This document shows positions 2,175 through 41,566 of a DNA stretch of 64,000 nucleotides, piece after piece. Both the position numbers and the translations under genes were made by a program. Source of the DNA: Nitrincola sp. (GTDB lineage Bacteria > Pseudomonadota > Gammaproteobacteria > Pseudomonadales > Balneatricaceae); assembly GCF_048264025.1 (NCBI RefSeq), contig NZ_JBLXDN010000004.1, positions 30,026 through 94,025 on the forward strand. The letters run 5' to 3'. Under the pieces are notes generated by a model, which worked only from the letters and a program-made list of their open reading frames with translations, did not search any database and was not told where the DNA came from. The stretch's first letter is position 1; every line of letters starts with the position of its first letter.

Positions 2175-4805
2175 ATGTTGATGTTTCGGAGGGTACCGAA
2201 CCCTCAATCCCGCGTGTGGCGCCTGACCCGACTATTGCTGGTGGGGGCAGTCTCTATGGCGATTGGCGGGACAGTTTCAGCAGCAGAGCCCTCATCCTCG
2301 GATCAGCAAGCTAGCATTCAGCAGGACTATCACCGTTTGATGCTGAGTGCCCGAGCCGGTGAAATGGCGGGTGCGTATCTTCAGGAAAATGGCCAACGCC
2401 TGTTCATCACCCTGACGGACAGAGCCGATCTGAATGAATGGCGTCAGACCGGTGAGCGTCTGGTGCAGCAGTACAGTCTTTATCATGCGTCCAGCTTACA
2501 GACCCTGGGTGAGCGATCCCACCTGATAATTGATCTGGCCCGTCCGGTTTATCTGGTAGATGAAACGCTGAGCTTGTCAGTAGTTGGTTTGGTTAACTGG
2601 GAAATGGTGTTTGCTAACCTCGATGACACGGTTGTATCAGCAGAACTACTCGATTCGATCCAGGCTGAATCCCGTGGTGGTTTGATTGAATTAACCTTTA
2701 CCGGTCATCATGACCTGATTACTGAGTTAATGTTTGAACAGGACCCTGATCAACTGGTTATCGAATTACCCGGTGTGGATCCCCGACATTATTTACGTCA
2801 AGCCAATTTACAAATGCCCGCATTGCTGGGAATGCCCGAAGTGCAGGGGGCACCCAATGGACACTCCCGTTTGGTGTTTACTACCCAAGGGCCGCTGGAT
2901 CTGGTGGATGCACATACCAGTATTGATCCGGTGACCAACCGAAGCCGTATACATCTGTTGTTGGTACCTGATAGCGCTGTGTCTGAGCGCCTACTGATGG
3001 ACACAGAGCAATTGGATCGCTTTGAGCTTACCCGTGAAGCAGGTACTGGCCTCAATTTGATTATCGGCAAACTTGGCGAGTCTCGTGTGAATGGCTACTT
3101 TCTCGAAGCTCCAGGGCGTTTAATGGTGGACTTTCCCGGTGTCAGTCCCGAGGCTGTAGAGCAGGCGGTGTTTGCCTATTCCCCTGACCCTGATTACGTC
3201 AAGCGTATTCGCTATGGCAAAACCCGCCTGGGTTCAGCCAGAATAGAGTTAACGTTACAAGACGGTTATGCTGAGCAGTTGTCTCGGCAAACCGTTGCTC
3301 ATCGCGACAATTATGAGTTTGGAACACTGGTTTCACTACCTGAGGCCAGTCGCGTGTTATCAGAAGGAGATTATCCGGATGATTTGCAAGGTATTGCCTA
3401 CTTTGAACGCGATACGTTACGCCATTTGCCACGCTTTGACTTCAGTGTGCAGCCATCGTTGACTATAGGTTCAGTGACTCTATCGGGTGCTGAATACCGT
3501 GATGGCAGCAATTTGACAGCGCTGGAGCAAGGGCAACGATTCTCATTGATGACAGCCCTGGATGAAGCGATGCAGCGTGATCCAGCTTATCATGCAGCCC
3601 GGGCTGAGTTCCGTGCCACCCAGGAACTGATTCCTCAGGCACGTTCAGAATATTTGCCTCAGGTGAGTTTTTCGTATCAGTTTTCAGCTAAGAACCAGGA
3701 TGTGCTGAGTTCAGGATCCATTCCGGAAGAACAAACTACCTTGTCCGAACAAAACGCCTCCTTAACGTTGACACAACCTATCTACCGCCCGGGCAGTCTG
3801 ATTGGCCTGACGCAGGCTGAAAAAGCCGTTCAGCAAGCTGAATTGGCACTATTGGCTGCCGAGCAGTCGCTCATTATGCGTATTGCCGAGGCTTACCTGA
3901 ATGTGCTTTCTGCACAAGACAGTCTCGAAGTGGCTAAGGCTGAACACGAAGCCATAGCGACCCAGTTCCGTCAAACCGAGATCAGCTTTCGCAGTGGCTT
4001 GGCCAGTCGCAGTGATTTAAGCGAAGCCCAGAGTCTGACAGCGCTGACCCGTGCACGAATGATCGAGGCGCAGAACCGCCTGGATGATGCGCAGTTGGCT
4101 GTTAAAGAAATTATCGGCAGTGAAGTGGAAAGTCTGCATAGTTTTAGTGCGGATTTCCGGGCTGCACCACCTTTTCCTGCTCAGGTTGAGGCCTGGATCA
4201 GTGCCGCTCTGGATCAGAACCTGTCGTTGCAGTCGCAGCGTATGGCCGAGCAGATTGCCGGTAATCAGATTCGTCGTCAGCGTGCTGATCATTTGCCGAC
4301 AGTCGACTTGTTTGCATCCACCGGTTATCAGGATGCTGATAAAACGCTCTACAGTGATAGCCGTCAGACGGTCAGCAATTATGAAGTCGGCATTCGGGTC
4401 AATGTACCGATCTTTAGTGGTGGACGCACTTCCTCTCTGGTGCGCGAAGCAACAGCACGTTATGAACAGACCGGCCATGAAGTTGAGCTGGAGCATCGGC
4501 GCACTGAACGCACTGTGCGTTCAGCATTCAATGGGGTGACCAGCAGTGCGGAAATGTTGGCTGCGCTGCGTGAAGGGGTGTTGGCGCAGGAGGTTCGTCT
4601 GGCAACGCGGATGCGTGGTTTCCAGGCAGGACTGGAGTCAACCGTCGCGGTACTGGATGCCTACCAGAGCTACTATGCTGCACGACGTGATTTTCTGCAG
4701 TCACGTTATGATTATTTGATGAATCGACTGGTTCTGAAACAGTCTGTTGGCACGCTGAGTCGTCAGGATCTGGCTGAACTGGATCGCCTTCTGGAGCGCC
4801 ACTAA
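2175..4805 (+). CDS. TolC-family outer-membrane channel (C-terminal ~430 aa) with ~440-aa N-terminal extension carrying AMIN-like repeats
   Basis: Signal peptide LLLVGAVSMAIGGTVSAAEP. From nt ~3513 the sequence is TolC/OEP-like with two internally repeated halves (LMTALDEAMQRDPAYHAARAEFRATQELIPQARSEYLPQVSFSYQFS ... LSLQSQRMAEQIAGNQIRRQRADHLPTVDLFASTGY). The N-terminal part contains recurring strand motifs ending in hydrophobic-D/E-hydrophobic-P-G-V (LVIELPGVDP, LMVDFPGVSP, HLIIDLARP), as in AMIN domains. Confidence 0.85.
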   Translation: MLMFRRVPNPQSRVWRLTRLLLVGAVSMAIGGTVSAAEPSSSDQQASIQQDYHRLMLSARAGEMAGAYLQENGQRLFITLTDRADLNEWRQTGERLVQQYSLYHASSLQTLGERSHLIIDLARPVYLVDETLSLSVVGLVNWEMVFANLDDTVVSAELLDSIQAESRGGLIELTFTGHHDLITELMFEQDPDQLVIELPGVDPRHYLRQANLQMPALLGMPEVQGAPNGHSRLVFTTQGPLDLVDAHTSIDPVTNRSRIHLLLVPDSAVSERLLMDTEQLDRFELTREAGTGLNLIIGKLGESRVNGYFLEAPGRLMVDFPGVSPEAVEQAVFAYSPDPDYVKRIRYGKTRLGSARIELTLQDGYAEQLSRQTVAHRDNYEFGTLVSLPEASRVLSEGDYPDDLQGIAYFERDTLRHLPRFDFSVQPSLTIGSVTLSGAEYRDGSNLTALEQGQRFSLMTALDEAMQRDPAYHAARAEFRATQELIPQARSEYLPQVSFSYQFSAKNQDVLSSGSIPEEQTTLSEQNASLTLTQPIYRPGSLIGLTQAEKAVQQAELALLAAEQSLIMRIAEAYLNVLSAQDSLEVAKAEHEAIATQFRQTEISFRSGLASRSDLSEAQSLTALTRARMIEAQNRLDDAQLAVKEIIGSEVESLHSFSADFRAAPPFPAQVEAWISAALDQNLSLQSQRMAEQIAGNQIRRQRADHLPTVDLFASTGYQDADKTLYSDSRQTVSNYEVGIRVNVPIFSGGRTSSLVREATARYEQTGHEVELEHRRTERTVRSAFNGVTSSAEMLAALREGVLAQEVRLATRMRGFQAGLESTVAVLDAYQSYYAARRDFLQSRYDYLMNRLVLKQSVGTLSRQDLAELDRLLERH

Positions 4806-4832: not shown

Positions 4833-4854
4833 AGCGAGCTAACTCGCTGGAGGA
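4833..4854 (+). promoter_or_regulatory. Perfect 6-bp stem / 4-nt loop hairpin (AGCGAG-CTAA-CTCGCT) directly abutting the GGAGGA Shine-Dalgarno of the giant gene
   Basis: Read directly: 4833-4838 AGCGAG, 4839-4842 CTAA, 4843-4848 CTCGCT, 4849-4854 GGAGGA, ATG at 4861. No U-tract follows, so it is not an intrinsic terminator. Confidence 0.35.
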
Positions 4855-4860
4855 TTACAC

Positions 4861-7800
4861 ATGGGAAGCGCAGCACGCTATCTGCACAATGCGGCTGGAC
4901 AGTCCTGGAAGCATCGGGCCTTGCGGCAATGGCATGGCCTGATCAGGCGTTCGCTGGACACTCAGCGGGTTAATAGCCAGCGTCAAGCGACCACTGAGGT
5001 GGAGTTGCTTGAGCAGCGTTTTATGCTTTCCGGTGATCTGTTGGTGATACCACCCACCCCTCAGGATTCGCAGGAATCTGTGATCAATCTGCAGCACCAG
5101 GCAGAAGCCGATATGCTGGCGGATTTTTCACTTGGTGGCGTACAGCAGCAAAGCTTGATTGATGAGCTGATCTTCATTGATACGGCTGTTGAGCAGCCTG
5201 AATATCTGATAGAGCAAGCATTAGCCCAGCGTGGTGATGGCCAGGCCCGTGTTGAAGTGGTTTATCTGGATGCCGGTGCAGACGGTGTGCAGCAAATCAG
5301 CCAGTGGTTGTCGCAATATGCTGATTTGCAAGCGATCCATATTATTTCTCATGGCGAAGCCGCCAGTGTGCAGCTGGGCAACACCACACTTGATACGACC
5401 TCACTGGATGCTTATGCAGAAGTACTCAGTAGCTGGCAAACCGCTTTAGCTGAAGGCGCTGATCTGTTGTTTTATGGCTGCTCTGTGGCCGAGGGAGAGG
5501 CAGGTCAGGCTTTTGTTGAGCGTATTGCTGAACTCACTGGTGCGGATGTAGCGGCATCGGATGACATGACTGGTGCGGAGCAGTTGGGTGGTAATTGGAT
5601 CTTCGAATACACCACCGGGGTAATCGAAACCCAGGCATTATTCAGTGCCGGCCATACGGTTTACGATGCCTTACTGGCTGATCTGACATTTACGGATGAA
5701 TCAAAATCCGCCATATTGACTGCGCTGCAGAACCTGGACCAACTGGGTAACCAGGCACTCAATGATGCGTTATCTAATGCGGATATACCCGGGCTGAGTA
5801 ACACCAGTATCCTGAGCCTGTTGGACTTAGGTGGTGCCAATTTTGATTTGCATGCAAACGCCAATAACTATTTTGCCAGTGGCGGCCCACACACCCTCTC
5901 TGGGCTGGTCAGCTATCTCAACAATAATAGCGCTTTATTGCTTATTGACGGTATAGAAGCCACGCTGACAGTCGATGCCAGCAATCCAGCTATGCCAATC
6001 TATGGCTTGCGTCTGACAGCGGATCTACAGCGTAACTCGACACACACAGTAACACTGAATCCGGCTGGCTATACACTCGATGCTATCACAGCCGATGCTG
6101 TCACCCGGCTGAAACTGGCACTCGAAGCCGGTATTCGCTTGAGTACGGACCCGAGTGTTGACCCCGAGGGTTTTATCCGCGCAGATAAGCTGCAACTCAG
6201 TACGCAGATGTCCGGTGAAGGTGATTTTAGCCTGAATTTGGGTGCCGCGTTTACCTTGCAGGATCCAGACAATCTGGATAACAGTCGCCAGATCACCAAT
6301 AGCGAATATGCTGTTAGTCTGATTCAACGTCAGGTGACAGCTGAAGCTCAGGGGCGTTTTGCCTTAAGTGGTGCTACACAGCAGGCTGCATTTGGTGCTC
6401 AGGCCTATCTGGCGCTGCAGGGTATACTGAATGGCGACGCGCTGAGTTTCAATTTTTACCGTGATGCCAATCTAAGTGATGCAGCCATTCAGGCGCAACT
6501 GCAAACGTTGTTGGCGCACTGGGCGCAGTTGGCGGTACAGCTGGATCAGTTGCAAGCACTTTCTGTCGAGTTACCGCTGGTCGATCAGTCACTCCTGTCG
6601 CTGATGGTGACGGAAGATGGCCGCACTCTGGGTGATATTTTCCAGTTTGGTTACTATCTGCCGGGTGGCGGTTTTACCACTGTGTTGCAGCAATACCTCT
6701 CTCAGGGTGATGCCACCTACATGGGGTTGATGTTGGAGTTGCAGGATTACCTGCATGGCCGTGGGACTTATAGCAGTTTGCAGTCGCTGATTCCGGCCGA
6801 TGCCAGTGATTCCCTGTTCAACGTGACGGGAGGGCTTAATACGGCGGGTAACGAACTCGCTTTAGGCCTGGAGTTGGCACTAAACCGTGAGTTTCTGGCA
6901 CAGCTCAGCTTTGGTGATGCGCTTGCCAAGGTGGGTTTTGCCTGGGGTGATGGACAGGGAATAACCCTGAATGCTCTAATCGATCTCAAGTTTGATCACC
7001 GCATTACCACGTCTTCGGCCAGCTTTGACCTCAATGAACTTGCGTTACAGGTTAGTGCGCCTACTGGAACCTTCTATGCACCCGCTCTATTGGGTGCCTT
7101 GCCAGTCACTGCCAGTGGTGTGCTGACATTTGACTCTGGACGAGTCACTGTGACAGCCGTTGATGACGTTGTGTCAGCTGATACCTCAACTGCTGAGGTC
7201 AATGCTGCTCTGAGTATGACCCTTTCAGGTGATCTGTTTGGGGTGCCTCTGGAAACTCTGGCCGGTGGTGTTCCTGGGGTTGAGATCAGTTTTAATAATG
7301 GTGCGGCGACCTCTTGGACAGACATTGCCAACTATAACTCTGAGGTGACGCTGTCCCACTTTACTCAGTTGAGTGCATTGAGCAGTCTGGAACCCCAGCA
7401 GTTGATGGATATGCTGTCTGATGTTGTCCTGTACCTGGAATCCTTGCGTGATTCTGGTGAATTTGACGGTTTGCTCCCTTTCACTGAGGTGAATCTGGGG
7501 CAGGGGCTGGATTTCAGTCAGGGCCTGATGGCCTTGTTTAACGAGGGCCTGCAGGCAACCCGTCAGGAAATACTTGCGGGTCAGGCGGTATCACCACGTT
7601 TGACGGACAATCTGTCATTTGATTTACAGGTGCAAATGCCAGGGCAGTCAGAGCTGTCGGTATTGACCATTACACTGCTAGCCAGCGAAACCAGCAGCTT
7701 TACCCATATCAATCAACTCGCCAGCCTCATTGATCAGAAAATAGCGCAGGCCGCTAACGCTGTATTGGGCTGGCAATTGCTGGATAGTGATGTGCCGGTA

Positions 7801-10800
7801 ACAGCGCTGGTACCGGTGGCGGCAGTCACTGAGCTGATCAAAGGCGGCCTGTTACAAGCAGGTCGCTATAGCAACGCTCAGCAGCAGGTCAGGTTGCACA
7901 CCAGCGGGGGCGATTTCCGTATCCGTGTTGGGGATGGCAGTTGGTCTGCAGAGGTCTCCAGTTATAGCAGTGCGGCAGAATTGCAGCGTGTATTGGAGAA
8001 TCTGCCGGAGATTGGCAAGGGTAATGTGCAGGTCACAGGGGACGCACGTAACTGGCAGGTTACTTTTGTCGGTGCATTGTCGGGTCAGGAGGTCGCACCG
8101 CTGGAAGTGGAATTTGCTGCCAATGCCAAGGCCGGTGGTTTGTTAGAAGTCTCCGCACAGGATCTGGACCGCGTCGATGGGCTCACCTACGGGCGCCTGG
8201 TGATCTCTCAAACACAGCCAGGTACGTTTGAGAAATTGAATATTGCACCATCTGTAGGGATTCAATTTAGCGAAGAACAGGCCGCGGCATTTGATGTCGA
8301 TGAAGATACACCGGTGCAACCAGCGGTGTATCAGTTGCAGTTGATTCATGCGGCCGGTGGTAGTTTCAGCGTTAATTTCAGCTATGACGGACAGTCATTT
8401 GAGACTGAGACGATCAGTCTGGAGGGCGAGGGAACCTGGAGCGATCGGATTGCATTGGCCTTGAATAAGGCGATTAACGATGCCTACCGTGAGGATAATG
8501 CGGGGCATGTAGATCAGGAATATCTCACAGTAGAACTGGCTCCCTTGGGCACTACCAATGACGGTATCCAGTCATTCTATATTGCAGCGAATATTCTGGA
8601 GGTCAGCGCCGGAAAAACCTTGAGCGGCTTCTCGGCTGATATTACTGAGCTCCGTTCTCAACCCGGTGTACAGGTGTTCGTGACTACCCTACAAGAGGGT
8701 CGCGTGGGTACCTCTGCGGAAGGGCGGTTGGGTGAAGTTCAGCGTCTGACCTTGGCGAATGTTGCCGGTGGCAGTCTGCAGATGCTATTGAATCTGGCTG
8801 ATGAAGCACTGGAATCTGATGTCCTGAGTCTTACCACATCGGGTGAGTTGAAAACGGCCAATCAATTAGCGGCCGATCTTGCTTCCACGCTCTATCAGAT
8901 GCTGATTAAGGTCTATGCCGACCTGGATCCAGCTGATATTCAGGTGTCAGTTGTCGCGGGTCAGGGCTATACCTTCGATATCCGTTTTACCGGTCAATTG
9001 TCCGGCCAGGATATAAATACCCTGTCAATCAATAAAACCAGCATAGTCTCAGCATCGGATTTTACCACCAGCTATGCCGATCTTACCTTGGCTGGTTTTC
9101 AGGCGGCAGGCGAGTCCATGCAGACTCATTCACAGCCGGGATTCACTGATTGGCACGTGTTGATGGACCGTTTCCAGCACGCAACCAACAGCCTGTTGAA
9201 TAACACCCTGACAACTGAATTTGCCGAGTTCAGTGTCAATCCTCGTTTTGATCTGGCCAGCCAAACACTCTGGCTGGACCTGTTCGTAGGCTCAGGTATC
9301 CAGATCGATGCAGTTCAGTTGCTATTGGATGCTGAAGCGGGTGGACTAGAGGGGTTCAGTGTCGATGCCTGGATGGATATTACTCATGAAACCTTTTTCA
9401 ATGGATCATTGGGCTTTGACCTGAGTCAGCCACAGGCTATTTCACTCCTGGCTGTGGGGCCTGTGGTGGGCTCTGTGACTGGAACTCAGGCTGATCCTGT
9501 GCTTAACAACCAAACGCTGTCGCTAGGATTTAATGTGGATGGACGCCAGTTTAATCTGGCTGACATACTGGCTGCTCAACCCACTGAAAATGGATTCGCC
9601 AGTGCGGCAGGCGCACAAGTATCGGTGACCTCGCAGACTGATTATATTAACAGCAGCGTCAATGCATTTATTCGTGTTAATGGCAGCGTGCTGGAAAACA
9701 GTGAAATCAGTGCCGTAGGCCGTGCGCCCGGCCTGGCGCTAAAGGTTGGTAGTGATGAGTATGTTAGTGTCATTAATGGGCTGGATGCTGGAGCAACCAT
9801 TGAGGTCGTTATCCAGATCAATGGTGTTGAGCGGTCGTTATTAGTTGATTCGACTATCACTGCCAATGCTCTCAGAGACAGCATCAATAGTGCCTTTAAT
9901 AGTGCATTTGACGCCACCCTGAACGGTGATCGGCTGGTGTCCATTCTGAATGCGGAGCTGGCCGCAATTGCCGGCACTGGACCTCTGTCAGGCTATGATA
10001 ATCTGGCTGGTGCACTGTATTTCGAGTTGACTGCAGAAGGGCAGTTGCAACTCCGCACCTTTGCCGCGGTTAACCAGATTATTCTGACACAGCCGAATAC
10101 GGCGGAGGGTGTTGTTGGACTGGAGGCTCTAGGAATCCAAATGGGTGTTGAGAACGCCATCCGACCCGCACCTGATTCTAACTATACACTCCCGTCTGAT
10201 GGACGACTGACAGAAGATGCTGCATTCCAGCTGCGCCTCGATAATGCCACAGCTATTGATATTACCCTTCCAGCTTCACTGACGGTTGATAACACTTCGT
10301 TGGCAGATCTGATGGCGGATATTCAGCAGGTACTGAATTCAATTGATATTTCGGCACATGCTTATCTGGGTACGCTAGACGGCGGGTTGGGCTATACCCA
10401 CCTGGGTCAGTTGATCCGCGCAAATTTGCTTTCCACTGAAATCAATACCGGGCTGGACCTCAGCTTTGGAAACGAAGCAGACGCTGATCAGGATATAGAA
10501 CATAGCTACTACCTGGAGCTGCAGGTTCTTGGCAATAAAATTGCGCGTGCCCAGATTGAGATGGCGGATGAGGGCAATATTGGTAACCGTGAACTCGGTC
10601 TGACGGCCAGACAATCGGTAAAAACAGCCGCTGTTTCGATGCAACTGCAAAATGCCATGATAGGTGGCCAGCTCAGTGCCGCAATGCAGGCCGGTGGTTC
10701 GGCTTCGGGTCAGCAAGGGTTGCTGGAGCTGCTTTTTGGCGATATCCAGATTGCCGATGGCGCCTATCAGGGTGCATTTGCGTACTATCTGGTTGATACC

Positions 10801-13800
10801 CTCAACAGCAACGACACCAGCCTGGATTTTAATGCCGCCCTCGACAGTGTGCTGGTACAGGGTGCACAGCTGGGGTTGACGGCAGATACCCAGGTTCGCG
10901 ATGAGACTACATTGCTCCTTACTCCGTTCAACCAGCAGGGTCAGACGGTACATGATGTTGGTCTGACGATCAGTTTCGATGCTTTTACACTGGGTAATCA
11001 GGCCTATGAGGCCTTTGATTTGGCCGTAGTACTACGCCAGTTGGCAACACAGAATAACACCTCGGTTGCTGATCTGGCGGCCGATCTGAATGCCGCTATT
11101 CATGCAGCGCTGAGTGCACATTTTGAAGGGGAGACAAACCCTTTTGATGGTCATGTGTTTGTGGTCGTTGATGATACCGGGCGCTTTGAAAAATTGCGTT
11201 TTGTGACTCTTGCACATGGTGAGGGTGCGACCCGAGTTGAACAGCAAAAAGTTCAGATGACACTGCGCAATCGGTTATTGCTGGATGAGTACAGTGCGGA
11301 GGGGTTGGTCTGGTCGGAGTCGACACAGGCGGCAATCACTCTGGGTGCTATTCAGGTCGGTTTACCCGAAGGGTTCAAGGATCAGTTCGGTAATACCCTG
11401 AGTGCTCCTGATATTAGCGAGTCATTGGTGCTGAATTTAGCGAACGCCGCTGAGGTCTTGAGTCTACCGGATATTCTGGCTGACATTGATGGCGATCTGC
11501 CTGATTTTGGACTCTATCAAGGCCTGGCTGAGCAGAGCTGGGCTGGGGTGCTGGATGACCTGACGCAACTGGCCTCTTTGTTGGGTAATCTGGCGAACAT
11601 GAGCGAATTAAGCTTGTTTGGTCAGAAATTACCGGTACTGAACAAGTCATTGCACGAGTTACTTAATCTTCAAGGTCACTTCAACCAGGTTTATGACGAG
11701 CTGAGTCAGATAGATCAGGCCAGCTTTCGTTCGTTACAGACCTTGCTGGAGTCAGCCTTTGGCCTGGAAGCCAATACGATTGACTACTACCTGGATACAG
11801 ACCGCCAAGCGCTGGTAATCAATATCCCCTTTACGCTGGCGTTTGAATCACTGGAGCAGTTCAATCTGCTGCTGGCTGACGCACGGCTTATGCAGATGTT
11901 TTCGGCTGCAGATCAAACTTTATTAAAAGAGTTGCTCGGTCCTACCCTGAGTATTACCGATGCAAATCAGGAAAGTTTGTTGCGCTTGTTCCGTGAAGTA
12001 ACCTTCAATCTGGAATTAGGGCTGGATCTGGCGCGGGAAGACGAGGGGCAGCCTAATTCTAATCTTGGGCGCTTGTTCCTGTTTAATGCGCGAGACCAGG
12101 GCGGAACGTCGATGCAGTTCCGGCTGTTCAATGATACCGATCAGACGCTGAATTTCACCTCGCCCGTTACGCTATATGAATTGCAGGTTGATGGTGGCAA
12201 GGTCGAGCTGGACCTGGAGGGCGGCTATCAGCTAAACAGCGATGGTGGTCGTCTCTATTTGGGTGAATATGCTGCGCATATCGTTGCCTCCATGTTACCC
12301 GTGCAGGTACAAGCCACGGATGAAAATGGTCAACCACTGTTTGAAGACGATGGCACGACGCCGGTGATGGTGAGTTCAGCCAATACAGATGCCAGCAATG
12401 CTGTCAAAGCGATAAAACAGGGAGCCTTCGACCTGTCCTTGACTGGTGATATTGAAGTCAGCTTACCCCTGAGTATCGTGGTTTCCGACCATTTGGCAGA
12501 CCTTACCGCTGAAGAGTTACCGATATTTGTCAATCCTATGCCTATAGGCACGGCAGAAATTGCTATTCGGGATCTGAATAAACTGCTGAGTAAAATGCTG
12601 GGTGATAGTCTCAGTTTAGCCACCCAGGTGGCTGAAGCGGCCAGGCCGCCACTGGTGAACAATGGCGGTGGCGATTTGAACCAGGAGGGTGTGCCTGGTG
12701 ATACTCAGGACGAGTCTGATTTGCCCGGTGTGGATCTGACTCCGGATAACCCGCTGACCGGTGGCGAAGGTCAATATACCCAGCCCAGTGATGATATTCA
12801 GGTGCCGGTCTTTTCTGCACCTGAGATACAACCTGGCAGTGACGGGTTTGATCTGAGTCTGATACTGCCTAACCTCGGTGGATGGCAGGAGACCTTCCTT
12901 CAGGTGCTACAGAATGCCGGTCTGGGTGAAGATTTTTGTGATCCAGATGGTGTCAGACTGAAAAGTGCCCCCTTACTTTTCTTGTTGAGTGATCCGGCTT
13001 TTGTGGTGGAAACGCTAGATACGGTATTGAGTGCTTTCCAGAGTGTGATCGACACCCTGACATCCGGCGTGGTTGGGCCAATCATCGGTGCTGAAGCCTT
13101 GCAGGAAATGACCCAGTTTGTTGCCGGTCTTCGCGAAGGCTTTATCAGCAGTTTAACTAATGCGTTGAACTCGGTAATTTTCAATTATGGCAGTCTCGAC
13201 AATGCACTGCGCATGGTGCTCTTTGATCTGCTCTACCATCCGGATAATCCATATCTGAACTTCCTGCGCGATTACAATGGCGACGGCATCATTACCCCAG
13301 ATGATATTGTGCTTGAGTACGTAGCCCAGGATGCCGACCAGTACACCTTTGTGAATATCCCTGAGCTGACAACGCTACTTGAAGCTGAACAGCTTTGGGC
13401 AATTCGTAACCTGACTGAGGGCGGACAACGTACTGGGTGGGTGGCATCAGGTGAGCGACTGCAACAGGCTGATGCTGATGGAAATCTGGTATTCCGTGAC
13501 GCTACCGGTAACGCTTATATTCGCATGCCCCAGTTGGATGAGATGGACCAGCAGCGCGAGGATGAAGACGGTAATTTGCTGTTTGAATACTATGCCGCTG
13601 TGCGTGTCAATGTAGCTTCCGAAGGTGAAACACCCGTCTACGAAATCCAGCCGGTCGTAGGTGCCGAGGCTGTTGAATTAGATGCAGACAAGCTCAAACC
13701 CTGCTATTTGGGAATTGCTGGTCAGGTGATTGTTGATCTGACTTATCAGGATTTGTTTGGCGGATTCTGGTATCGCGAGAATATGTCCGGTGACCCAGAC

Positions 13801-16800
13801 TTCCTGACTGATGATCAGGCCGAAGCGATCGATGCCTTCCTGGCATCAGATGCGTTTCTGAGTCAGTTCCCTGGCTGGGACGGTGAGTTGACGGCTGATG
13901 TCATTGAGGTGATCCGTGAAGAGTTTATTAATGACTCCGACCTGCGCGAACTGAAATTTGTCAGCTACTCAGACGAGCAGGTGAACGCCTCCAAACAACT
14001 GGTGTTTGCGCAGAGCAGCGCTGTCCAGTTCCGCATGAACTTGGGTCAAACCATCGAGTTACCCGATGCGTCAGTGGCCTTTGATGTCGGCGTGCCTGGC
14101 CTGAACCTGGAGATAGACGGCGGATTGGCTGTTAATCTGGACTGGGATTTTTTCCTTGGGTTTGGTCTGGATGTCAATCAGGGTTTTTATCTGGTGGCAA
14201 ATATGCCAGGCCATGCAGGTATCGGCCAGGTAACTGAATTTGCTGAAGACAGTCAGGAGTTGTATGGCAAAGCCTGGGTAGCTACCGGTTTTGCTGATGC
14301 AGGTATTTTGCGTGATTCAGCCGGTTTTCCTGTGGATGCCGATGGTAACCGCATTCTCAACGATGAGGGCTATCCTCTCACTGTTGAGGAGGAGGCCCTC
14401 TATGCAGATCAACTCGTGTCGATGGATGAAGCTATCAGCAATCTCTGGTCATTGGATGATGGTGTTGAAGTATCTGAGATACAGTTCCAGATTAGCGCCT
14501 TTCTGGCACCTTCACCGAATGAGACTAATTTCTATGAGCAGCGTGTAGTTGAAGAATATTTCAATCTTGAAACCAAGCAGATTGAGAAGCGCTTCGTCAA
14601 GAACGGTAGTGAATATGTTTATGAAGTAGTTTACACCGACCAGCCCAAACTGGATGCTGAAGGCAATACACTCTATGAGCTGGCCTGGGAATATGAAACC
14701 GAGGTGGTGGATGGTCGTGAACAGATAAAATACGAAGCCTTGCTCAGTGCGGCCGGTCATTTTGTCTACCGTCGTCAGACTGGAAATGGGCAATACGAGT
14801 ATAAAGAAGAAAGCAGCCGTCTTACCAATACTGGTGGCTGGGAGCTGATGCTGCAAACGGACCGCTTCGGTGATCCGATTCCGATCTATACACTGGATGG
14901 CGGTGGTCAGCGTATCGCCGTGATGGTGGATGGCGAACAGGCATTAATGACTGATCGTTTTGGTCGCTATGTGCCTCAATATAAAGAATTGCGTGCTCCG
15001 GCGAGTCTGCAAGCCGAATTGCTGTTTATGAATGGCACCATCACGGATAATTATTCAGGCTGGATTAAAGATAATGAAGGTCGTGTCTGGGGTGATCGTG
15101 AAGCCTGGCAGGATGACACCTTTGGTACCATCTGGTACGACGATCAGTCCAACTTTGATGCCTGGGGTGTCAGCGACACGCTGTTTGATGGCAAGACCGG
15201 CTATGAAGGTTCCAGAACGCAGTTCCTGGCCAGATTTGAAATAGATCTTACCGATAATGCATCACTCGGCTTCAGCTCAGGAGACACTCTGGGATTGGAT
15301 GAAGGTGTGGCTGGGGAAGTGGACGATATACTCGATGGCACCTTTGGTGGCAGCGATGGTCGTCTGACATACAATGTGTTGACCACCAATGACCTGGGTG
15401 ATCTGTTTGAGACACATTGGGAAGCCTATGCACAGATTAACCTGCAGATGCAGCTTGGTGTGGGTTTTGGTGATGCGATTCAACCGGACCTGTTGCCGGC
15501 CATCGAGGGTAACTTCCAGCTTACCTGGTCAGCGGAGAAAGAAGACCCAGATCAGCCGGAATGGCAGCAGTGGATGGATCGTTTTGAGGAATTGACCTCC
15601 AGCGACTACTACTCCCTGTTTGCCGATCAGCCGGGTGTATGGATGACTGATATCGCGTTGGATATGGGGACTTTCTTCTCCAACTTCCTGGAGCCAGTGA
15701 TCGATGTGATTTCAGTGGTTACAGATCCGTTTGCACCAGTCATTGAGCAACTGACCAAGCCGATACCCGGTATTTCTGACCTGATGCGTAAGAACTACTC
15801 GCTGGTGGATATGGCGGTAGACTTCTCCAAAATCAGCGGTGGCAATGCCAAAATAGATTTTATTGTCTCGCTGATCAGCCTGTTTGATACCATCAACAGC
15901 CTCAAAGCCGTGATTGATGCCGGTGGTTCGACAGTCAAGCTGCCGGTGTTTGATGTGTTGTTACTGGCAGGCAATAGTCATTCAGAGTTTGCTCTGGATA
16001 ATGTCCTCAACTACATCGGTGACGTAGCAGATTTCAGTGCCGTTGCCAAAGCGATCCCTGGCGAAACCACCATTTCGCTGGATCAAGGCATGAATGACTT
16101 CTTTGCTGCGCTGGAAAAACCTGCCAATGCGCTGCAGTTCCCGATTATCGATAATCCGGGTGATGCCGTACTGGGTCTGTTGTTTGGTAAACCGGTTGAC
16201 CTGGTAACTTATACTCCGGCTAATCTGGAAGTCGGTGTTGGCTTTCGCAAAAGCTTCCCTGTCTATCCACCGCTGTTTGTCGGTGTAGGGGGGGAGATCA
16301 AGCTGGAGGCTTTTATTACGCTGGGATTCGATACCTATGGTGTGATCAAGTTCCTCGACAGCAAGAATGTTGTGGATGTCATGGATGGATTCTACATCAG
16401 TGACAATATTGACTCCCGAGGGGTAGACCAGCCAGAAGTGATGCTGTCTGCACAACTGGTTGCCTTTGCCGAATTGAATGCAGTAGTCGCACGTGGTGGT
16501 GTGGAAGGAGGAATACGTTTTGAAGGTACGCTGGATCTGTGCGATCCGGACCAGGATGGCAAGGTGCGTGGTTCTGAAATCTACGCAATAATTGCTAAAA
16601 ATCCAGCCGCACTGGTTAGCTTAGATATGCGTGCCACTGCCTTTATCCGCGCTTATCTGGACGTTTTGGCACTGATCAAGTACGTTCGTGTGTGGGAATA
16701 TACCTTCATGGACGTGACGCTGTTTGAGTGGTCACTGGATCTTTGTAATCAGGATCCAGTTCTGGCTTCTATGGATGGTAGCGTGCTGGTGTTGAATACC

Positions 16801-19800
16801 GGTTCCGGTTTTGCGGGTGTCGATGGTTATCCGAAAATCAGTTTTGATGCTTCAGACCGCTTGCGTAAGAGCACCGAAGATGGTGATGAACATTACACTT
16901 TGAACCTGTCTGGTAGCAATATCGAAATAGTAGCGGTATTGCCGAATGGTCAGGAATACACCCAGACCTATCGTCGCTCCACCGCAGTACATGGCTTTAG
17001 TGGAGCCGGAACGGATGTGTTTGATGCGCGCGGTCTTGGCAATATCCCAGTCTATTTTGTCGCGGGTAGTGGTGATAACACCTTCTATGCCAGTAATGCT
17101 GCCAGCGGTAATGTGCTGATTGGTGGTACCCAGGGCATTGCGCGCCTTTACGGAGGCAGTGGTGAGGATATGCTCATTGCTCGGGGTGGGCAAACCGTCA
17201 TGGAAGGTAAGGCCGGGGATGATACCTACCGTTTCCTCAACGAGTGGGGCCGCGTCACTATCAGTGACAACCAAGGCCGTAATATTCTTGATTTCAGTGC
17301 TCAGAAACGCAGTGTGACCTTTGATGATGCAGCGTTGAATGCTGTGCAAGGACGCAATGTTGTGCAATGGCAGGCAAGCACCCAGATTAATCTGGTTAAA
17401 GGTGGTCAGGCCAATGACTGGCTGAACTTCGCCGGTAATGCCCAGAACCTGATGATTACTCTGACCGGGTTAAATGCCGGTTGGGTAACCAGCTCTACCA
17501 GTGGCATGGGGCAGTCCAATTTACCGGCCAATGGCACTCAGCAAGGTGCTGCTGAAACGTCTGGACAAGGCTTTACCTTTGTCGGTTTCGAAAATGTACT
17601 CGGCGGTAAAGGCAGCGACGTATTTCGAGTTCAGGCTGGGGCATCGGTTACAGGTAGTCTGCGTGGCGATACCGGCATGGATAACGTCAATGCCCGTAAC
17701 ACGATCGACTTCTCAGAGTTTACCCAAGGTGTTCAAGTTGATCAGACCGGCACCAGCCGTTTTTCTGGCACTGGTAATATCAGTATTCGTGGTTTCCACA
17801 ATATGTTTGGTGGTGCTGGCAATGATGTACTGATCGGCAACAGCTACAACAATCTGATTGTCGGCAATGGTGGCAGTGATAATCTCAGTGCCATTGGCGG
17901 ACATAATCTACTGATCGCTGATAGCTTTCGGACCTACCGCAATGGCGATAGCAGCGTGTCCGCTATTCAAGTGGGTGACTATACCAGCCTGCAACAGGCT
18001 GGGCTCGCTGGCGGTCATGGCAATGATGGTCGGATGTGGTTGTGGAAAGACAAGACCCTGGAGTCCATCGGTCTGGGCAATGGCAGCCAGGTACTGCGAG
18101 GTGCCGGAGGCAATGACATATTGATGGGATCATTGGGAAGTGATCGAATCCTTTCCGGGGAAGGTAATAATACCATTATGGCCGACCTTGGCCTGATTCG
18201 GGTGGATTTCAATTATAACCTGCCGCTCTATCTGGAAAGCTTCGGGGCAGCCGGTGGCGGCAATGACAGTATCTTCCTCGGCGGTGGTAACAATATTGTT
18301 ATAGCCGGGAATGGCAACGACAGTATTACTGCAGCCGATCGCCCGGAAAGCCTGAATATTATCCTGGGTGATAATGGTCGCATTGCCTTCAAAACTGACC
18401 AACGCACCTTTGCTGTGAATTCGCAGGGTTTTCGTATGCTGGACTATATTGAAGCCCCCGTGAATGAGATGGGGGGTGCCGGGGGTAACAATCTGATCCA
18501 GATGGGCAGTGGCTCGGCGATCATTTTCGGCGGAGCCGGTAATGATGTCATCAGTATGGCAGCATCCAGTTCTACGGCCCAGAATGTGCGTTTTATTGCC
18601 GGTGATCATGCCCGCATCGAAACGGATGGCAATGGCGGCGTGGTGCTGTTCAAAACGTTGGATATCGAAAACAGCAGCGGTGGTGATGACTTCATCCGTA
18701 TCGGTGATGGCGCTGATTCAGCACTGCGTCATCTAGGAAGTAATTTTATCCTCGGCGGCATGGGCTCAGACACGATTCTTATCTCGGCACATTATGATGA
18801 CAATGGGCAACTGATTCGTGGCCTGGCTCAGAGTGAAGATGTGATTATCGGAGATAATGGCGAAATTCGCTGGACAGTGTCCGGTAATGGTAAACCTAAT
18901 CTATTGCAGAGCGTTCGTACCCTTGAAGATGACAAGGGTGGCGATGATGTCATCATAACTGGCAATGCGGGTAAGGTGATTTTGGGTGGTTTTGGCTCTG
19001 ATGAGATCGCTGCACTGGACGGTATCAATATTGTCTTCGGTGACAATGCTGAACTGCAATATGACGCGGTTGCTGTCAATGGCGTGCTCCGTCTGGCGCA
19101 GTCGAAAAATGAAGTGCTGGGCGGTAACGACACCATTACGCTGGGTGAGGGTTATAAGCTGGTTAGCGGTGGTATCGGTGATGATGTGATTTCAATCGAT
19201 GCGCAAGGCACCCCAGAGGCCTTTGGTGTGGAGTGGGATACCGATGGCGGATTCCTTGCTGGTGTAACGGGGATCTCCGCTGTTATTGCCGGGTTTGGCG
19301 GGGTGTTAACAGTACCCGCTCAGGAAGCACGGGGCCGAACCGGTCGCTATATCGCCGGTGATAACCTGCGAGCCACCTTTGATCAGCGTGGCGGTTTAAC
19401 TAACCTGGCGACAACCGACCAGATCGCAGCGACCGGTGGTGATGATCAAATCACCACCGGTCGACAGAATACCAGTGCTTATTTGGGCCTAAACGTGGTG
19501 TTCGGTGGTATGGGGGGGGATCAGATTCTGGTGCAGTCTGGCAGTATGGCTGAGAACGTTATATTTGGTGATAACGGTCAGTATGATCGTCAGGCACTCA
19601 GCTATCAGATGCTGTCACTCACCAGTAGCATTCCCAACTCCGGTGGCAGTGACACAATACAGGTAGGATCTGGCGATAACATTCTGATCGGCGGCTTTGG
19701 CAATGATACTCTGCGCCTAGACTCTGATGATCAACATGCCTTGGTTGCGGCGCATTTCAACCGCAGCATTGTGCTGGGCGATTCAGGTGAAGTTGTCTAT

Positions 19801-22800
19801 TCCGGTGGTGCACTGCAGCGCATCGAAAGCCTGGGACACAATGCTGGGGGCCGTGATAGCGTTACCATCGGCGATGGTGACGTTACCTTCGTTGGGGGCT
19901 TTGGCGGTGATACGCTGAACATTAACTCTAACCGCACGGCCTTCCGTATTCTGGCGGGCGACAATGCACGTATTATTTTTTCACCGGTTCAGGATATTCG
20001 TGAACAGGCCGCCAGCCTGACGCGTATCATCACTCTGGATCAGGTGTCAGCCACCGGTGGTAATGATGTGATGAACATCGGCATTTCCGGAGCTTCCACT
20101 GGCGATATGGGTGAAGTCATCGCACTGGGTGGTGTGGGTTCTGATGCGATCCGTGTGTCTGGTGAACGCGCTCGGGTAACCTTGATTGGTGACAATGGTG
20201 AGGTGCAGCGTGTGGCTGGGCACCAGGGACATCGCTTGCTGGTTAGCAGTCTGGATCCAACACTCGGTGCGGGGGGGACCTTGCAGACTGTAGCCGGTGA
20301 CTATGTCATTATCGGTGGTTCTGGAAGCGATAATATTCGTACTGGTAAAGGTACAGGGGTCGTATTTGGGGACCATGGACGCATCAGCTATTCAGCATCG
20401 GGTTACCTGAGCTCTTTGACCAGTTTGTCGATTGCACAGGGTGGTAATGACACCATCGAGCTGGGTGTCGGTAGTGGTATCGATGGTCATAAATATGTTA
20501 TCGGTGGCGTTGGCTCTGACAACATTACCCTAAGTTCTAACCGCGGTTCAGCTGCAGACCCTATCGAGCGCGCTATTGCCGGTGACAACGTCAGTATGGC
20601 CTTTGATGTCTTGGGACGAATGACCAGTTTCACTACACTCGACAGTGAGTTGGCAACCGGCGGTAACGACCAGATTACCCTGAGTATGTCAGGTGATCGT
20701 GAGAGTGAAGTGATCACGGATTACAATGTTGTTGCCGGTGGTATGGGTGATGACGATATCAATATACAAGGGTCAACACGCAGTAGTGATGTGGTTTCAG
20801 GTGATAACCTGGATTATCGCCGTAGCATCAGTGTTAGCGGCGAACGCCAACATCTGTTTGCTGGAGTGCTAGTGCCAACAGCCGGCGGTAATGACATTAT
20901 TCGTGTTGGCGCTGGTGAAAAGATCCTGTTCGGTGGACAAGGGAATGATCGCATTACCGCTAATACCGAGTCTGGTGATCGTACCGTTATGTTCGGCGAT
21001 GCTGGTAATGCGGTGTTTAACAGCAACGGCAATGGTGAGTTGATCCAGTTACTTTCAACCTCTGCGCAGTTGGGTGGTCAGGATAACCTGACGGTAACCG
21101 GTGGTGAACTGTTCCTGTTTGCTGGACTGGGCCGTGACACTGTGACGGTGACCGGAAATGATGAATCAACACGTATAATCAGTGCGGCCAGTGCTCAGGT
21201 TAACTTTGATCAGGGCGTTGCAGTACTGCTGCAAAGTGCAGGGCCTGATCAGGTTGATGCGGGCAGTGCTGACACCCATTTCATTCTGCCCAACTCAGGT
21301 ACCAATTTTGTTATTGGGGGGGCTGGTTTTGATACGCTTACAGGCAGTCAGGGCGATCAGCATCGACTTTTACCTGGCAGCGGTTCGATCAACCTGCTGA
21401 CTAAAGTAGTCAGTGTGGTGGTGTTAGGTGATGAGGGCGAACTTGGTTTCACTTTAGAGGGTGAGTATGCCACTGGGCTGCCTGATGAGAACGGCGTTTA
21501 TTTGAAACGTCCAGGACGTGATTTTGTTCGTGCTGCCCCGGTGGTGGACCCGGATGATCCAGATCCTGCTGACCCGGATGAGCCGACTGATTTCACCTAT
21601 TTTGGTGCGGGCAGTGTGACCGAGGACCTGGCTAACGAAATTTCCGGACGGATCGCCTATCCTGCACTGGAGGGTGGTTTTGCCACCTTTGATGCTCAGC
21701 AAAATAGCCAGGCTGGACTGTATGGCTACCTCACTGTGTTGGAAAATGGTGCCTGGCGTTACAACCTGGCCCATGACGCGCAAGGATTAAATGCTGACTT
21801 GAATGCTCGGGTACAGGCGTTGACTGATGGTGATCAGCGTACTGAGTATTTCACCGTAACGACCACCGATGGTAGTACTACCACGGTCATCATCACAGTG
21901 AATGGTCGTACAGATACCCCGGCAGATGTGAATGCCCAGATACAGGAAGATGCTGAGCAACTGAGTATTTCTGGTCAGGTAGTCGATACAAATGATCCGC
22001 AACAGCGCACGCTGTTCCAGCCGTTTGAGTCCGTGGGAACTTTTGGTGTTCTAGTGCTCCATGCTGATGGACGCTGGGAGTACCAGTTGGATAATGACAA
22101 AGCCCAGTCACTACGTGAGGGTGAACTGGGAATAGAGCTGTTCCTGGTACAAACCCTGGATGGAGCAACCAGCCAAATTGCCATCACTGTCGAAGGTGTC
22201 AATGATGCGGCTGAAATTCAAGGCAGTTCGACTGCCGCACTGGTAGAAGATGCGCTGGATGCCGAACGTGAACTGCGGGTGGAAGGTCAACTTCGTGTTG
22301 TGGACCCGGATACAGGTGAAGATCGCTTTGATTTGCAACGAATCGAGGCGGCTCAGGGCGTGCTTGGACAACTGCAACTCAGTGCTGAGGGCGACTGGGT
22401 TTACACTCTGCACAATGGTGATATTCAGTATCTGCATGCAGGCGAAACACTGATTGAAACTTTCACCGTTTACTCACTGGATGGCACCGCATCAGAGGTG
22501 ATACAGATTACCTTGACCGGGGTAAATAACCCTGCTCAGATTGCCGGCCAGTTCAGTGGACAAGTGGTTGAAAAACAACAACTCAGTGCCTCAGGCAGCC
22601 TGACTGTCATGGATGCTGATCAAGATCAGTCGTCTTTCCAGCCAGCCAGCTACCACAGTGCTTATGGCCAATTGCAGATCAATGCTCAAGGCCAGTGGGG
22701 CTATCAGTTGCAGGCTGACAGTCAAGCACTGCGTGATCTGAATCGTGATCAGGTGGTTTATGACCGTTTCACACTGAATACACTGGATGGCACGACCTTC

Positions 22801-23427
22801 ATCGTGGAGGTTCGGATCACGGGTGAAACGGGTGTACGAGAAGCCGGTCAAGACAGTGATGCTCTATACCCGCCAAGTGCCATTGATTGGGGGCAGCTGT
22901 CTCCCTCAAATTCGGTGAAAGCCTCCTACAGTCATACTAGCGATGTTGATACTGATCGTGATGGCAAAGACGATGATGATCTGCCAGATGTTCAAATCAG
23001 TCTACTCACACTGGGTCAGCAAGGCTTTATGCAACTCAAGCCGCTGGCTCCCCCTGTAACGGGGGTACAGTTGCGTACCGATCTTTCCAAAGGGCTGCTG
23101 GAGCAGGGTTTACAGATAGAGTCGCTGCCCCTGGCAAACACTGATGCCGATGAAGCCGTCGATAATGATGAACAAGACGCTGTCGAGCAAGCTGATCAGG
23201 TCCTGGATTTACTGGATCCAGGTTTATCAGCCGAGGGTGAGTCTTTCAACCCTACTGGTTCAGAGATACCTGATGAAGAGGATCAAGAGCTCGATGCAAC
23301 CGAAGAAGCAGAAGAAACCCAAGAGATAAATGAAGACGCTGCCAGTTTGCAAGCGTTGCAGACCCTGGCACAGACCGCCGCGTTAACAACCCGTCCTGGA
23401 CGTATTCTCTGGGGTTGGAACGGATGA
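4861..23427 (+). CDS. Giant 6188-aa secreted-adhesin-like protein (LEPR-XLL-like motif, DUF4347-like domain, long mostly non-repetitive body, RTX-like repeats, ~70-aa super-repeats, 4 VCBS-type repeats, acidic tail)
   Basis: Uninterrupted 18.6-kb ORF with GGAGGA 7 nt upstream of the ATG. No hydrophobic signal peptide. Only about 5 Cys seen by eye. Gly/Asp-rich Ca-binding-type repeats and VCBS-like repeats are typical of type-1-secreted giant adhesins. Confidence 0.9.
   Translation: [6188 protein letters not shown]
5008..5028 (+). other. LEPR-XLL-like N-terminal motif (LEQRFML) of the giant protein
   Basis: [12 protein letters not shown] at residues ~48-59 resembles the LEPRxLL(S/F)(A/G)D signature found at the N-termini of very large repetitive bacterial proteins. 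Confidence 0.5.
5155..5640 (+). other. DUF4347-like domain of the giant protein
   Basis: [14 protein letters not shown] ... [48 protein letters not shown] ... [38 protein letters not shown] ... GGNWIFEY matches my memory of the DUF4347 pattern. Confidence 0.7.
17060..18190 (+). repeat. RTX-like Gly/Asp nonapeptide-type repeat blocks (protein level)
   Basis: [85 protein letters not shown] and [29 protein letters not shown] all fit GGxGxDxUx-like units. Confidence 0.7.
18250..21215 (+). repeat. About 14 tandem ~60-75-aa super-repeats (GGxDxI ... GGxGxDxI ... GDNGxI/F), protein level
   Basis: Recurring units start with [120 protein letters not shown] and [10 protein letters not shown]. Each is followed by a second GGxGxD box and a GDN(G/A)-x-(I/V/F) strand. 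Confidence 0.7.
21610..22827 (+). repeat. Four tandem ~100-aa VCBS-type repeats (protein level)
   Basis: Each unit ends with a strand plus a V/TxG-x-N/T-D/N-x-A/P boundary: [102 protein letters not shown]. Each has an internal G-x-W-x-Y motif (GAWRYNL, GRWEYQL, GDWVYTL, GQWGYQL). Confidence 0.75.
22840..23424 (+). other. Acidic, low-complexity C-terminal tail of the giant protein
   Basis: [15 protein letters not shown] ... [24 protein letters not shown] ... [29 protein letters not shown]. Confidence 0.7.
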
Positions 23428-32987: not shown

Positions 32988-33290
32988 ATGAGTGATGAAA
33001 ACGAACTGAAATCAGCCGCACAAGCTAACCCTGCCCAGTCGCCCAAAATCCACTGGGACGACAGTGAAATGCAGACTAACTATTCCAATGTCTGCAATGT
33101 CATGGGTACGCGTGAGGAGATCATGTTGCTGTTCGGTTCCAATCAGGCCTGGCAAACGGGTCAGACCGAAGTGAAGGTTAAATTATCCAATCGTATTCTG
33201 CTGACACCCCATGCGGCGAAACGCCTCAAGGTATTGCTGGAAATGGGCCTGAAAGAATATGAAACCAGATTCGGTGAAGTCAAACTCTGA
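32988..33290 (+). CDS. DUF3467-family small protein (100 aa)
   Basis: AGAGGA sits 7 nt upstream of ATG 32988. YSNVCNVMGTREEIMLLFG ... RILLTPHAAKRLKVLLEMGLKEYETRFGEV matches the DUF3467 pattern as I remember it. The longer ORF from 32919 would overlap the tpsA 3' end and was not used. Confidence 0.75.
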   Translation: MSDENELKSAAQANPAQSPKIHWDDSEMQTNYSNVCNVMGTREEIMLLFGSNQAWQTGQTEVKVKLSNRILLTPHAAKRLKVLLEMGLKEYETRFGEVKL

Positions 33291-37238: not shown

Positions 37239-37241
37239 TCC

Positions 37242-39221: not shown

Positions 39222-39224
39222 ATC

Positions 39225-41462: not shown

Positions 41463-41566
41463 TCTCAACGCATTGGGATGTTGCAAATCAAGGTTAGGCC
41501 GTATTCGGGTTTAGTTTAAGTGATTTTTTGCTATGCTAAGGTTAGTGTATTCAAATTGAATTTTGT

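Follow-up and report, generated by a model that had tools for sequence, protein, structure and literature searches.

A stretch of 64,000 nucleotides from the genome of Nitrincola sp. (assembly GCF_048264025.1, contig NZ_JBLXDN010000004.1, positions 30,026 to 94,025), here called the window, contains a gene for a giant protein of 6188 aa that opens with a short tag of the LEPR-XLL type. Further downstream lies a cassette of genes for proteins of the cell envelope, among them a fusion of a PqqD/RRE domain (RRE, RiPP recognition element; RiPP, peptide made on the ribosome and modified after translation), an M50 protease and an HlyD adaptor, referred to below as the M50 fusion. The tag and its relationship to this cassette are the subject of the analysis. 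The features concerned are the following, in window coordinates.

2175 to 4805, forward strand: TolC-family outer-membrane channel with AMIN, directly upstream of the gene for the giant (Pfam OEP and AMIN; TIGR01844, 299.5 bits).
4849 to 4854, forward strand: Shine-Dalgarno-like GGAGGA, 6 nt ahead of the ATG at 4861, read from the sequence.
4861 to 23427, forward strand: the giant, the putative cargo, an 18.6-kb open reading frame (ORF) of 6188 aa, containing Cadherin_4, Big_9 and a small number of RTX repeats and acidic at its C-terminus.
4861 to 4998, forward strand: variable basic part of the leader, residues 1-46, with a low-confidence AlphaFold2 helix at 15-33 and pLDDT values (defined below) of 47-73.
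4999 to 5061, forward strand: LEPR-XLL domain (the tag), residues 47-67, VELLEQRFMLSGDLLVIPPTP, with its core LEQRFML at 5008-5028.
5062 to 5166, forward strand: linker between the tag and DUF4347, residues 68-102, of variable length and low conservation, with a predicted local distance difference test score (pLDDT) of 46-58.
5167 to 5652, forward strand: DUF4347 globular domain, residues 103-264 (Pfam PF14252, E 1.7e-53).
33259 to 35082, forward strand: GAF-HlyD adaptor (Pfam GAF and HlyD_3).
35022 to 37238, forward strand: PqqD/RRE-M50-HlyD fusion, the proposed receptor and peptidase of the tag.
37242 to 39221, forward strand: short SecA paralogue of 659 aa (Pfam SecA_DEAD, SecA_PP_bind and P-loop_SecA).
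39225 to 39950, forward strand: small HlyD adaptor.

An earlier reading of the window, made from the sequence only (the sequence-only reading), had noted a resemblance between the end of the leader and the LEPR-XLL motif. Its translation of 4861-5040 is exactly as quoted, with LEQRFML at residues 50-56, and the resemblance is borne out: the tag is a true member of the NCBIfam family NF012209, LEPR-8K ("LEPR-XLL domain-containing protein"), which matches residues 47-67 with 25.7 bits against a cut-off of 17 (hmmscan, E 5.8e-6). When the 4.47-Mb genome is scanned in six frames, only the tag exceeds the cut-off (29.5 bits, E 4.1e-6); the runner-up scores 12 bits, and no match above the cut-off was found in 14 control genomes. 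E51 and R53 are invariant in all 23 aligned N-termini, and L50 is kept in at least 90% of them. Forty further N-terminal regions were fetched which, with the window, make up the 41 loci examined here. The motif lies 12-106 residues into the open frame in all 41. A loose pattern for it matches the 6188 aa protein once, at residue 50, and the 41 loci show no recurrence of it in 19,375 residues further downstream. A chance motif is ruled out by this absence of recurrence and by the genome-wide uniqueness of the tag.

The leader had also been described as basic and non-hydrophobic, and the charge count and a Kyte-Doolittle scan agree. Residues 1-49 contain 8 lysine and arginine, 3 aspartate and glutamate and 3 histidine residues, and the highest mean hydropathy over 15 residues of the leader is 1.08, with no hydrophobic core of the Sec or Tat type. 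The same measure across the 41 loci has a median of 1.1 and a maximum of 2.02, and the stretch preceding the motif is 8-100 aa long (median 31), its net charge having a median of +5. Since the hydrophobic core is absent, a Sec or Tat signal is ruled out.

An AlphaFold2 model was built on the 23-sequence alignment. Most of residues 1-100 have a pLDDT of 46-58, with 73 for the block 21-30 within the helix at 15-33, and residues 1-49 are predicted to be disordered. The LEPR block is modelled as coil with a pLDDT below 50, the adjoining DUF4347 being mostly above 90, and the tag does not pack on this domain. From this contrast, the tag appears to be a free linear motif carried by a flexible arm at the N-terminus and not part of a folded domain. 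The linker between the tag and DUF4347 is gap-rich in the alignment (columns 80-150), without a conserved column. A phmmer search with residues 1-300 gave no matches to Protein Data Bank sequences, and in a Foldseek search with the model no structure matched the leader, only the DUF4347 part finding matches.

With the M50 fusion alone as the query, a search of genome contigs identified two loci, one in Nitrincola lacisaponensis and one in a metagenome-assembled genome of the Pseudomonadota. N. lacisaponensis 4CA is the closest relative found, with 87% identity in the M50 fusion and 85% in residues 1-300 of the giant. The ATG at 4861 and the codons following it are conserved in this species, and the 100 nt upstream are 56% identical (ungapped), the alignment having two single-base gaps. 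Coding sequence that is conserved from the ATG, next to upstream DNA that has diverged, indicates that the leader is translated from 4861. A start at GTG 4999, placing the motif at the very N-terminus, is ruled out, because the ATG at 4861 and the next 46 codons are conserved as coding sequence. Of the changed codons, 11 are synonymous and 1 is non-synonymous in the LEPR block (codons 47-67), compared with 10 and 9 in codons 1-46 and 14 and 6 in codons 68-100. The LEPR block is thus the most constrained part of the leader and is under purifying selection.

A total of 401 genomes of a single phylum, the sample for all counts given here, were searched with the M50 fusion, DUF4347, LEPR-8K (E <= 0.01) and the short SecA, the last being counted from listed matches that exceed 373 bits and lie in frames about 660-830 aa long. 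The M50 fusion was matched in 98 genomes, DUF4347 in 101 and LEPR-8K in 57. Among the matches listed, the short SecA is found in 36 genomes, all of which have the fusion and 33 of which are LEPR-positive. The sequence-only reading had proposed to test whether LEPR-XLL or DUF4347 proteins co-occur with a block of SecA-like and M50 genes. The outcome is strongly positive for the M50 fusion, which is present in 53 of the 57 LEPR-positive genomes (4 have LEPR only, 45 the fusion only and 299 neither); the short SecA is listed in just 36 of the 98 fusion-positive genomes and missing from the lists for the other 62. When LEPR and DUF4347 are taken together, 94 genomes have either of these and the fusion, 4 the fusion only, 20 LEPR or DUF4347 only, and 283 neither.

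The tag is also a physical neighbour of the fusion. There are 90 LEPR matches listed, and a fusion is listed on the same contig for 41 of them and on a different contig or not at all for the other 49; many of the assemblies are fragmented and two fusion candidates were scored per genome. For the 41 same-contig matches, the distance between the giant ORF and the fusion is 10 kb or less in 34 and 20 kb or less in 38. These distances contradict the outcome named beforehand as damaging to an N-terminal signal, that LEPR-type proteins would show no association with such gene blocks. Adjacency of the tag to the fusion or to the short SecA is seen in 34 genomes, representing 26 genera and 20 families. 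It does not depend upon DUF4347, which is missing from 13 of the 57 LEPR-positive genomes; in 9 of these the LEPR giant is 5 kb or less from the fusion. The idea that DUF4347 forms the true link to the machine is therefore ruled out, and it is the tag, rather than this domain, that goes with the machine.

The 40 fetched regions were chosen by the type of neighbour, before the flavour of their tags was known. Twenty are LEPR matches adjoining strong-scoring fusions or a short SecA. Eleven are LEPR matches without a short SecA, ten of them next to weak-scoring fusions and one next to a stronger fusion (304 bits). The remaining nine are DUF4347 matches adjoining weak fusions, eight in genomes without a LEPR match at the threshold used and one (L046) on a contig without one. 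The form L/I/M-E-x-R-x-hydrophobic-hydrophobic is present near the N-terminus in all 41 loci and occurs in two flavours. The S flavour, LEPRxLL-S-A/G-D/E (consensus r.rrl..E.LEpR.LLSad), is found in 22 loci including the window. The D flavour, LEPRxMF-D-G-A-A (consensus la.ALEpR.mFDgAavaT), is found in 18.

These flavours follow the fusions. In 21 of the 22 S-flavour loci the tag adjoins a fusion of the strong clade, scoring at least 287 bits to the fusion of the window; the 22nd (L026) directly adjoins a short SecA, its fusion not being among those scored. All 18 D-flavour loci adjoin fusions of the weak clade, at 182 bits or less, and no short SecA is listed on their contigs. The one exception is L021, in which a D-like "DGT" follows the core and a strong fusion lies 11 kb away on the opposite strand. 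Two S-flavour loci, L034 and L036, have a strong-clade fusion and no SecA within 20 kb, indicating that flavour follows the fusion clade rather than SecA. It is clear that tag flavour co-varies with fusion clade. The D-flavour leaders, for example those of L038-L046, score 15.2 or 14.9 bits on NF012209 or do not match it, against the cut-off of 17. The family model therefore misses part of the class, and probably many DUF4347 giants are not annotated as LEPR-XLL proteins.

SecA as a universal partner of the tag is ruled out by its occurrence in 36 of the 98 fusion-positive genomes and by its absence from the D-flavour loci. The constant partner is the M50 fusion, the short SecA being an add-on of one branch. 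The earlier argument that a SecA-like motor threads its substrates N-to-C, and that an N-terminal signal should be expected for this reason, consequently fails as general logic, because the short SecA is missing from an entire flavour of the tag.

The content of the operon agrees with what had been proposed for it: domain scans against Pfam and NCBIfam identify the PqqD/RRE-M50-HlyD protein and the short SecA, with further HlyD adaptors and TolC. The PqqD domain of the fusion reaches 35.3 bits (cut-off 23.4), and the match to Peptidase_M50 is weak. The best NCBIfam match is NF041824, daptide_HExxH ("daptide biosynthesis intramembrane metalloprotease"), covering residues 38-425 with 161 bits. 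This model is likewise the best NCBIfam match for all eight fusions scanned, from both clades, with 120-200 bits in the seven others; all eight fall short of its equivalog cut-off of 300 bits, making them relatives and not members of the family. H229, E230, H233, D261, N323, P326, F330 and D331 are invariant in all nine fusions aligned, and with the HExxH and NPxxxFDG motifs of the zinc site conserved in this way the protease should be active.

The genome carries one tag, one DUF4347, one fusion and, besides the canonical SecA, one short SecA. In the eight 20-kb loci mapped, the S-type cassettes have GAF-HlyD and the fusion, with SecA as an option; most also have a small HlyD, though none was found in L048. 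The D-type cassettes have a further HlyD adaptor, which carries GAF in L054 and a weak GAF match in L049, and a fusion adjoining the giant, the small HlyD and TolC being identified in L054 only. An ABC (ATP-binding cassette) ATPase was found in none of the eight, and in the D-flavour loci L049 (G286), L050 (G123) and L054 (G159) neither a short SecA nor an ABC-type ATPase lies within 20 kb. Domain scans of the window found no HlyB-type ABC transporter between 2175 and 40752, the ABC genes at 55301-58704 being about 15 kb past the cassette, and no C39 peptidase, ABC domain or SecY2 among the cassette genes scanned. There are no modification enzymes in the operon. No HlyB-type transporter of a type I secretion system (T1SS) was found in the genome over the TIGR01846 cut-off of 725.55 bits. 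The best match to this model is a 737-aa frame at contig C53:10793-12853 (447.6 bits), which covers the N-terminal extension.

In the model the pLDDT of DUF4347 is about 74-98 per 10-residue block and at least 94 across most of the domain. H164 and G165 are invariant in the alignment and C207 is kept in at least 90% of sequences. The best Foldseek match to the domain is the type VI secretion system effector Tce1 (9qpe_G, E 1.2e-5), followed by flavodoxin-like folds, and similarity to CHAT proteases and caspase-7 is weak. One DUF4347 protein, PA0256, is listed as a putative Hcp-dependent effector in one paper. The RTX matches are weak; they fall near residues 4406-4439 and 4927-4956 of the 6188, more than 1200 residues short of the C-terminus. 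The C-termini of five giants are acidic and of low complexity and cannot be aligned, with no clear conservation, in a setting where T1SS signals themselves have no strict consensus. The giant of the window ends in GRILWGWNG (about 23380-23424), and a similar GRIQWGQ is found some 35 residues before the end of the giant in G006 (L052). The largest LEPR-bearing open frame in the sample is 19,427 aa.

The following genes surround or interrupt the locus.

80 to 2014: sensor kinase (PAS/SBP_bac_3 histidine kinase), preceding the TolC gene.
23415 to 25535: TpsB (ShlB/FhaC type), beginning 13 nt before the stop codon of the giant.
25550 to 32965: TpsA.
40009 to 40752, forward strand: SapC-family gene, just past the cassette (PF07277, E 1e-74).
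Within 40968 to 42355: IalB-family gene, after SapC.
41567 to 42355: EAL-domain gene (cyclic di-GMP phosphodiesterase type), downstream of SapC.

A copy of SapC with 55% identity is found at L051:3207-3902 (G010), upstream of a TolC/HlyD/GAF-HlyD/M50/SecA cassette, and SapC may be a further conserved or accessory component of the cassette. In G006, the cassette ends with a TpsB homologue of 37% identity (L052:5801-7651). Its presence there and in the window suggests that two-partner-secretion genes travel with this clade of cassette. The IalB and EAL genes and the histidine kinase are possibly regulatory context of an adhesin locus. In G014, a 650-aa ORF without a Pfam match (L048:5742-7691) directly follows the fusion, in the slot occupied elsewhere by SecA, and is itself followed by an OEP gene; this ORF may be spurious, since the region is of high GC content with overlapping ORFs.

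The conservation of the tag, its constant partner and the co-variation of the two are best accounted for if the tag is an N-terminal cytoplasmic recognition signal for the machine encoded by the cassette, a reading to which a probability of roughly 60% is given. Residues 1-67 would be a non-hydrophobic leader, consisting of a variable basic stretch and then h-x-E-x-L-E-(P/Q)-R-x-L-L-S-(A/G)-(D/E), which would stay unfolded in the cytoplasm. The LExR block would be bound as a short linear motif by the N-terminal PqqD/RRE domain of the fusion. The support for such binding, and for removal of the leader, is the co-variation of tag flavour with fusion clade. Binding would dock the giant on an envelope-spanning assembly of GAF-HlyD, RRE-M50-HlyD, small HlyD and TolC, joined in this clade by the short SecA ATPase, and export would then proceed N-terminus first. 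The short SecA, where present, would supply energy. The intramembrane M50 protease would probably remove the leader near the conserved small residues that follow the motif, in the manner of the daptide peptidase MpaP; leader cleavage is the more tentative part of this reading, with the odds leaning somewhat against it. It has a little short of an even chance that, more broadly, LEPR-XLL is the sorting signal of an uncharacterised TolC-dependent secretion route without an ABC transporter, that the M50 fusion is its signal peptidase, reading and trimming the leaders of megadalton proteins, and that the leader flavours and machine clades are co-evolving, the S flavour with the strong clade, usually alongside a short SecA, and the D flavour with the weak clade and no SecA.

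Several points weigh against recognition of the tag by this machine. One is that the crossing of the inner membrane by a chain of 6188 aa has no explanation. An M50 protein is not known to serve as a protein-conducting channel, and in the cassettes without SecA no ATPase was seen in the loci scanned, so that the energy source is unexplained. Site-2 proteases usually cut membrane segments, and the leader has none. In three weak-clade fusions scanned, no Pfam PqqD match was obtained at E <= 0.001, the daptide model aligning on weak-clade fusions from profile position 25-42. The cassette of the window starts 9.8 kb past the giant gene, with the M50 gene about 11.6 kb past it and TpsB and TpsA in between. 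For three of the 41 same-contig tags the fusion is 35 kb, 610 kb and 1.23 Mb away, and some substrates would therefore need to be served in trans. Four of the 57 LEPR-positive genomes (G190, G354, G362 and G397) have no fusion match: G190 is 69% complete and G354 86%, and the LEPR matches of G362 (20.6 bits) and G397 are weak, in frames of 771 aa and, for G397, 64 aa. Only one phylum was sampled, and two M50 candidates and three SecA candidates were scored per genome. The 401 genomes are related and so not independent, which overstates Fisher p-values, and co-occurrence is for this reason given as counts.

The alternative that survives best, still an unlikely one, is that the tag is a tether: RRE-M50-HlyD would hold it, anchoring the adhesin, until a cut by the M50 protease under the control of GAF-HlyD released the protein. 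An N-terminal retention module anchors the adhesin LapA to the cell in this way. Co-occurrence, adjacency and co-variation fit a tether equally well, the catalytic residues of the protease are conserved, and the EAL-domain gene lies just downstream of the cassette. A GAF sensor is present in the cassettes scanned, clear in the window and L054 and weak in L049, as well as at the locus described by Kamneva et al. 2015 (PMC4452313). Against this, no ABC ATPase is found in the cassettes and the RTX matches lie far from the C-terminus, whereas LapA-type export uses an ABC transporter and a C-terminal signal; in addition, the tag is disordered in the AlphaFold2 model and is not a folded plug.

More doubtful again is the suggestion that the short SecA reads the tag as an unusual signal peptide, with the M50 fusion merely a scaffold or channel, a role suggested for it by Kamneva et al. 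(PMC4452313). The short SecA retains the preprotein cross-linking domain, nearly all genomes with a listed short SecA are LEPR-positive (33 of 36), and in one layout, seen at 7 loci, the tag follows the SecA gene by about 0.2-0.7 kb. However, a short SecA is not listed for 24 of the 57 LEPR-positive genomes, none of the 18 D-flavour loci has one on the contig, L034 and L036 among the 22 S-flavour loci pair a strong-clade fusion with no SecA within 20 kb, and the leader has no hydrophobic core. The least probable of the alternatives, that the tag is a pro-segment (inhibitor or substrate) of a His/Cys-bearing DUF4347, brought near the cassette by a shared adhesin island and exported by a T1SS encoded elsewhere, could draw on the invariant His-Gly and near-invariant Cys of DUF4347, its weak resemblance to CHAT proteases and caspase and the ABC gene at C53:10793-12853 (447 bits on the HlyB model, below the cut-off), but is very improbable given the 13 of 57 LEPR-positive genomes without DUF4347, 9 of them with the tag within 5 kb of the fusion, a co-variation of flavour with clade that simple proximity would not lead one to expect, and a tag that is not packed on DUF4347 in the model.

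LEPR-XLL is at present an orphan label, attached to some of the largest proteins of bacteria. A literature search found no paper assigning it a function or identifying it as the signal on the cargo of this gene set, the domain being merely mentioned in the portions of the literature retrieved. If the tag is the recognition signal proposed here, it would account for the way in which many giant adhesin-like proteins are exported with neither a Sec signal nor an ABC transporter. It would also carry leader recognition by an RRE, a principle known from small RiPP peptides, over to proteins thousands of residues long, and supply a substrate for a gene set left without one in the sections of Kamneva et al. 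2015 that deal with it. The existence of two flavours permits a direct test of specificity, and the D-flavour consensus could widen annotation to proteins missed by the current model.

The NF012209 family is described as a domain at the N-terminus of very large proteins. The tag shares with it a score over the cut-off, this position and a core of the form LExR-x-hydrophobic-hydrophobic; it differs in having glutamine in place of proline and in beginning at residue 47 and not at the very first residues. Other systems share parts of the proposed arrangement. Giant RTX adhesins are exported by T1SS of the HlyB-HlyD-TolC type, LapA for example using LapBCE, with LapG and LapD. Common to these and to the present locus are HlyD-type adaptors and TolC, a giant repeat-rich cargo with RTX and the pairing of cargo and machine genes. 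Here, by contrast, the cassette lacks an ABC transporter, the conserved signal sits at the N-terminus, RTX is far from the C-terminus and the protease is fused to an adaptor.

Peptidase-containing ABC transporters recognise an N-terminal, non-Sec double-glycine leader, which is cut by the exporter's own peptidase. An N-terminal non-Sec leader is shared, but no C39 peptidase or ABC domain is found among the cassette genes scanned. In the SecA2/SecY2 systems of Gram-positive bacteria, a dedicated SecA paralogue serves giant serine-rich adhesins with an atypical N-terminal signal. The dedicated paralogue is shared, and SecY2 and a hydrophobic leader core are the points of difference, both being absent here.

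The closest parallel for the protease is the daptide system, where the protease MpaP/DapP is described as an RRE fused N-terminally to a site-2 protease, and where the leader carries a short conserved motif, ELExMEAP, and is removed by the RRE-dependent peptidase (bioRxiv 10.1101/2023.03.08.531785). The architecture of N-terminal RRE and M50 is the same, the fusion has its best NCBIfam match in this family, and both leaders have a short acidic/hydrophobic motif, ELExMEAP in one and ExLEPRxLL in the other. The fusion of the window differs in its extra periplasmic HlyD half and in working alongside TolC, and its proposed substrate is a protein of 6188 aa, compared with a peptide of roughly 25-40 aa, with no modification enzymes.

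For the cassette as a whole, the secondary SecA_DEAD/Peptidase_M50/HlyD/GAF-HlyD locus of Kamneva, Poudel and Ward (2015, PMC4452313) is the same four-gene set as that at 33259-39950, and its authors likewise noted that an OEP gene is sometimes present and that an ABC transporter is lacking. Sections 16-17 of that paper give no substrate, signal, link to LEPR-XLL or SecA-less cassettes of the D flavour. The system proposed here combines known kinds of component, the leader and RRE-peptidase logic of one and the TolC/HlyD conduit of another, and it stands a fair chance of being, as a whole, a new type of secretion.

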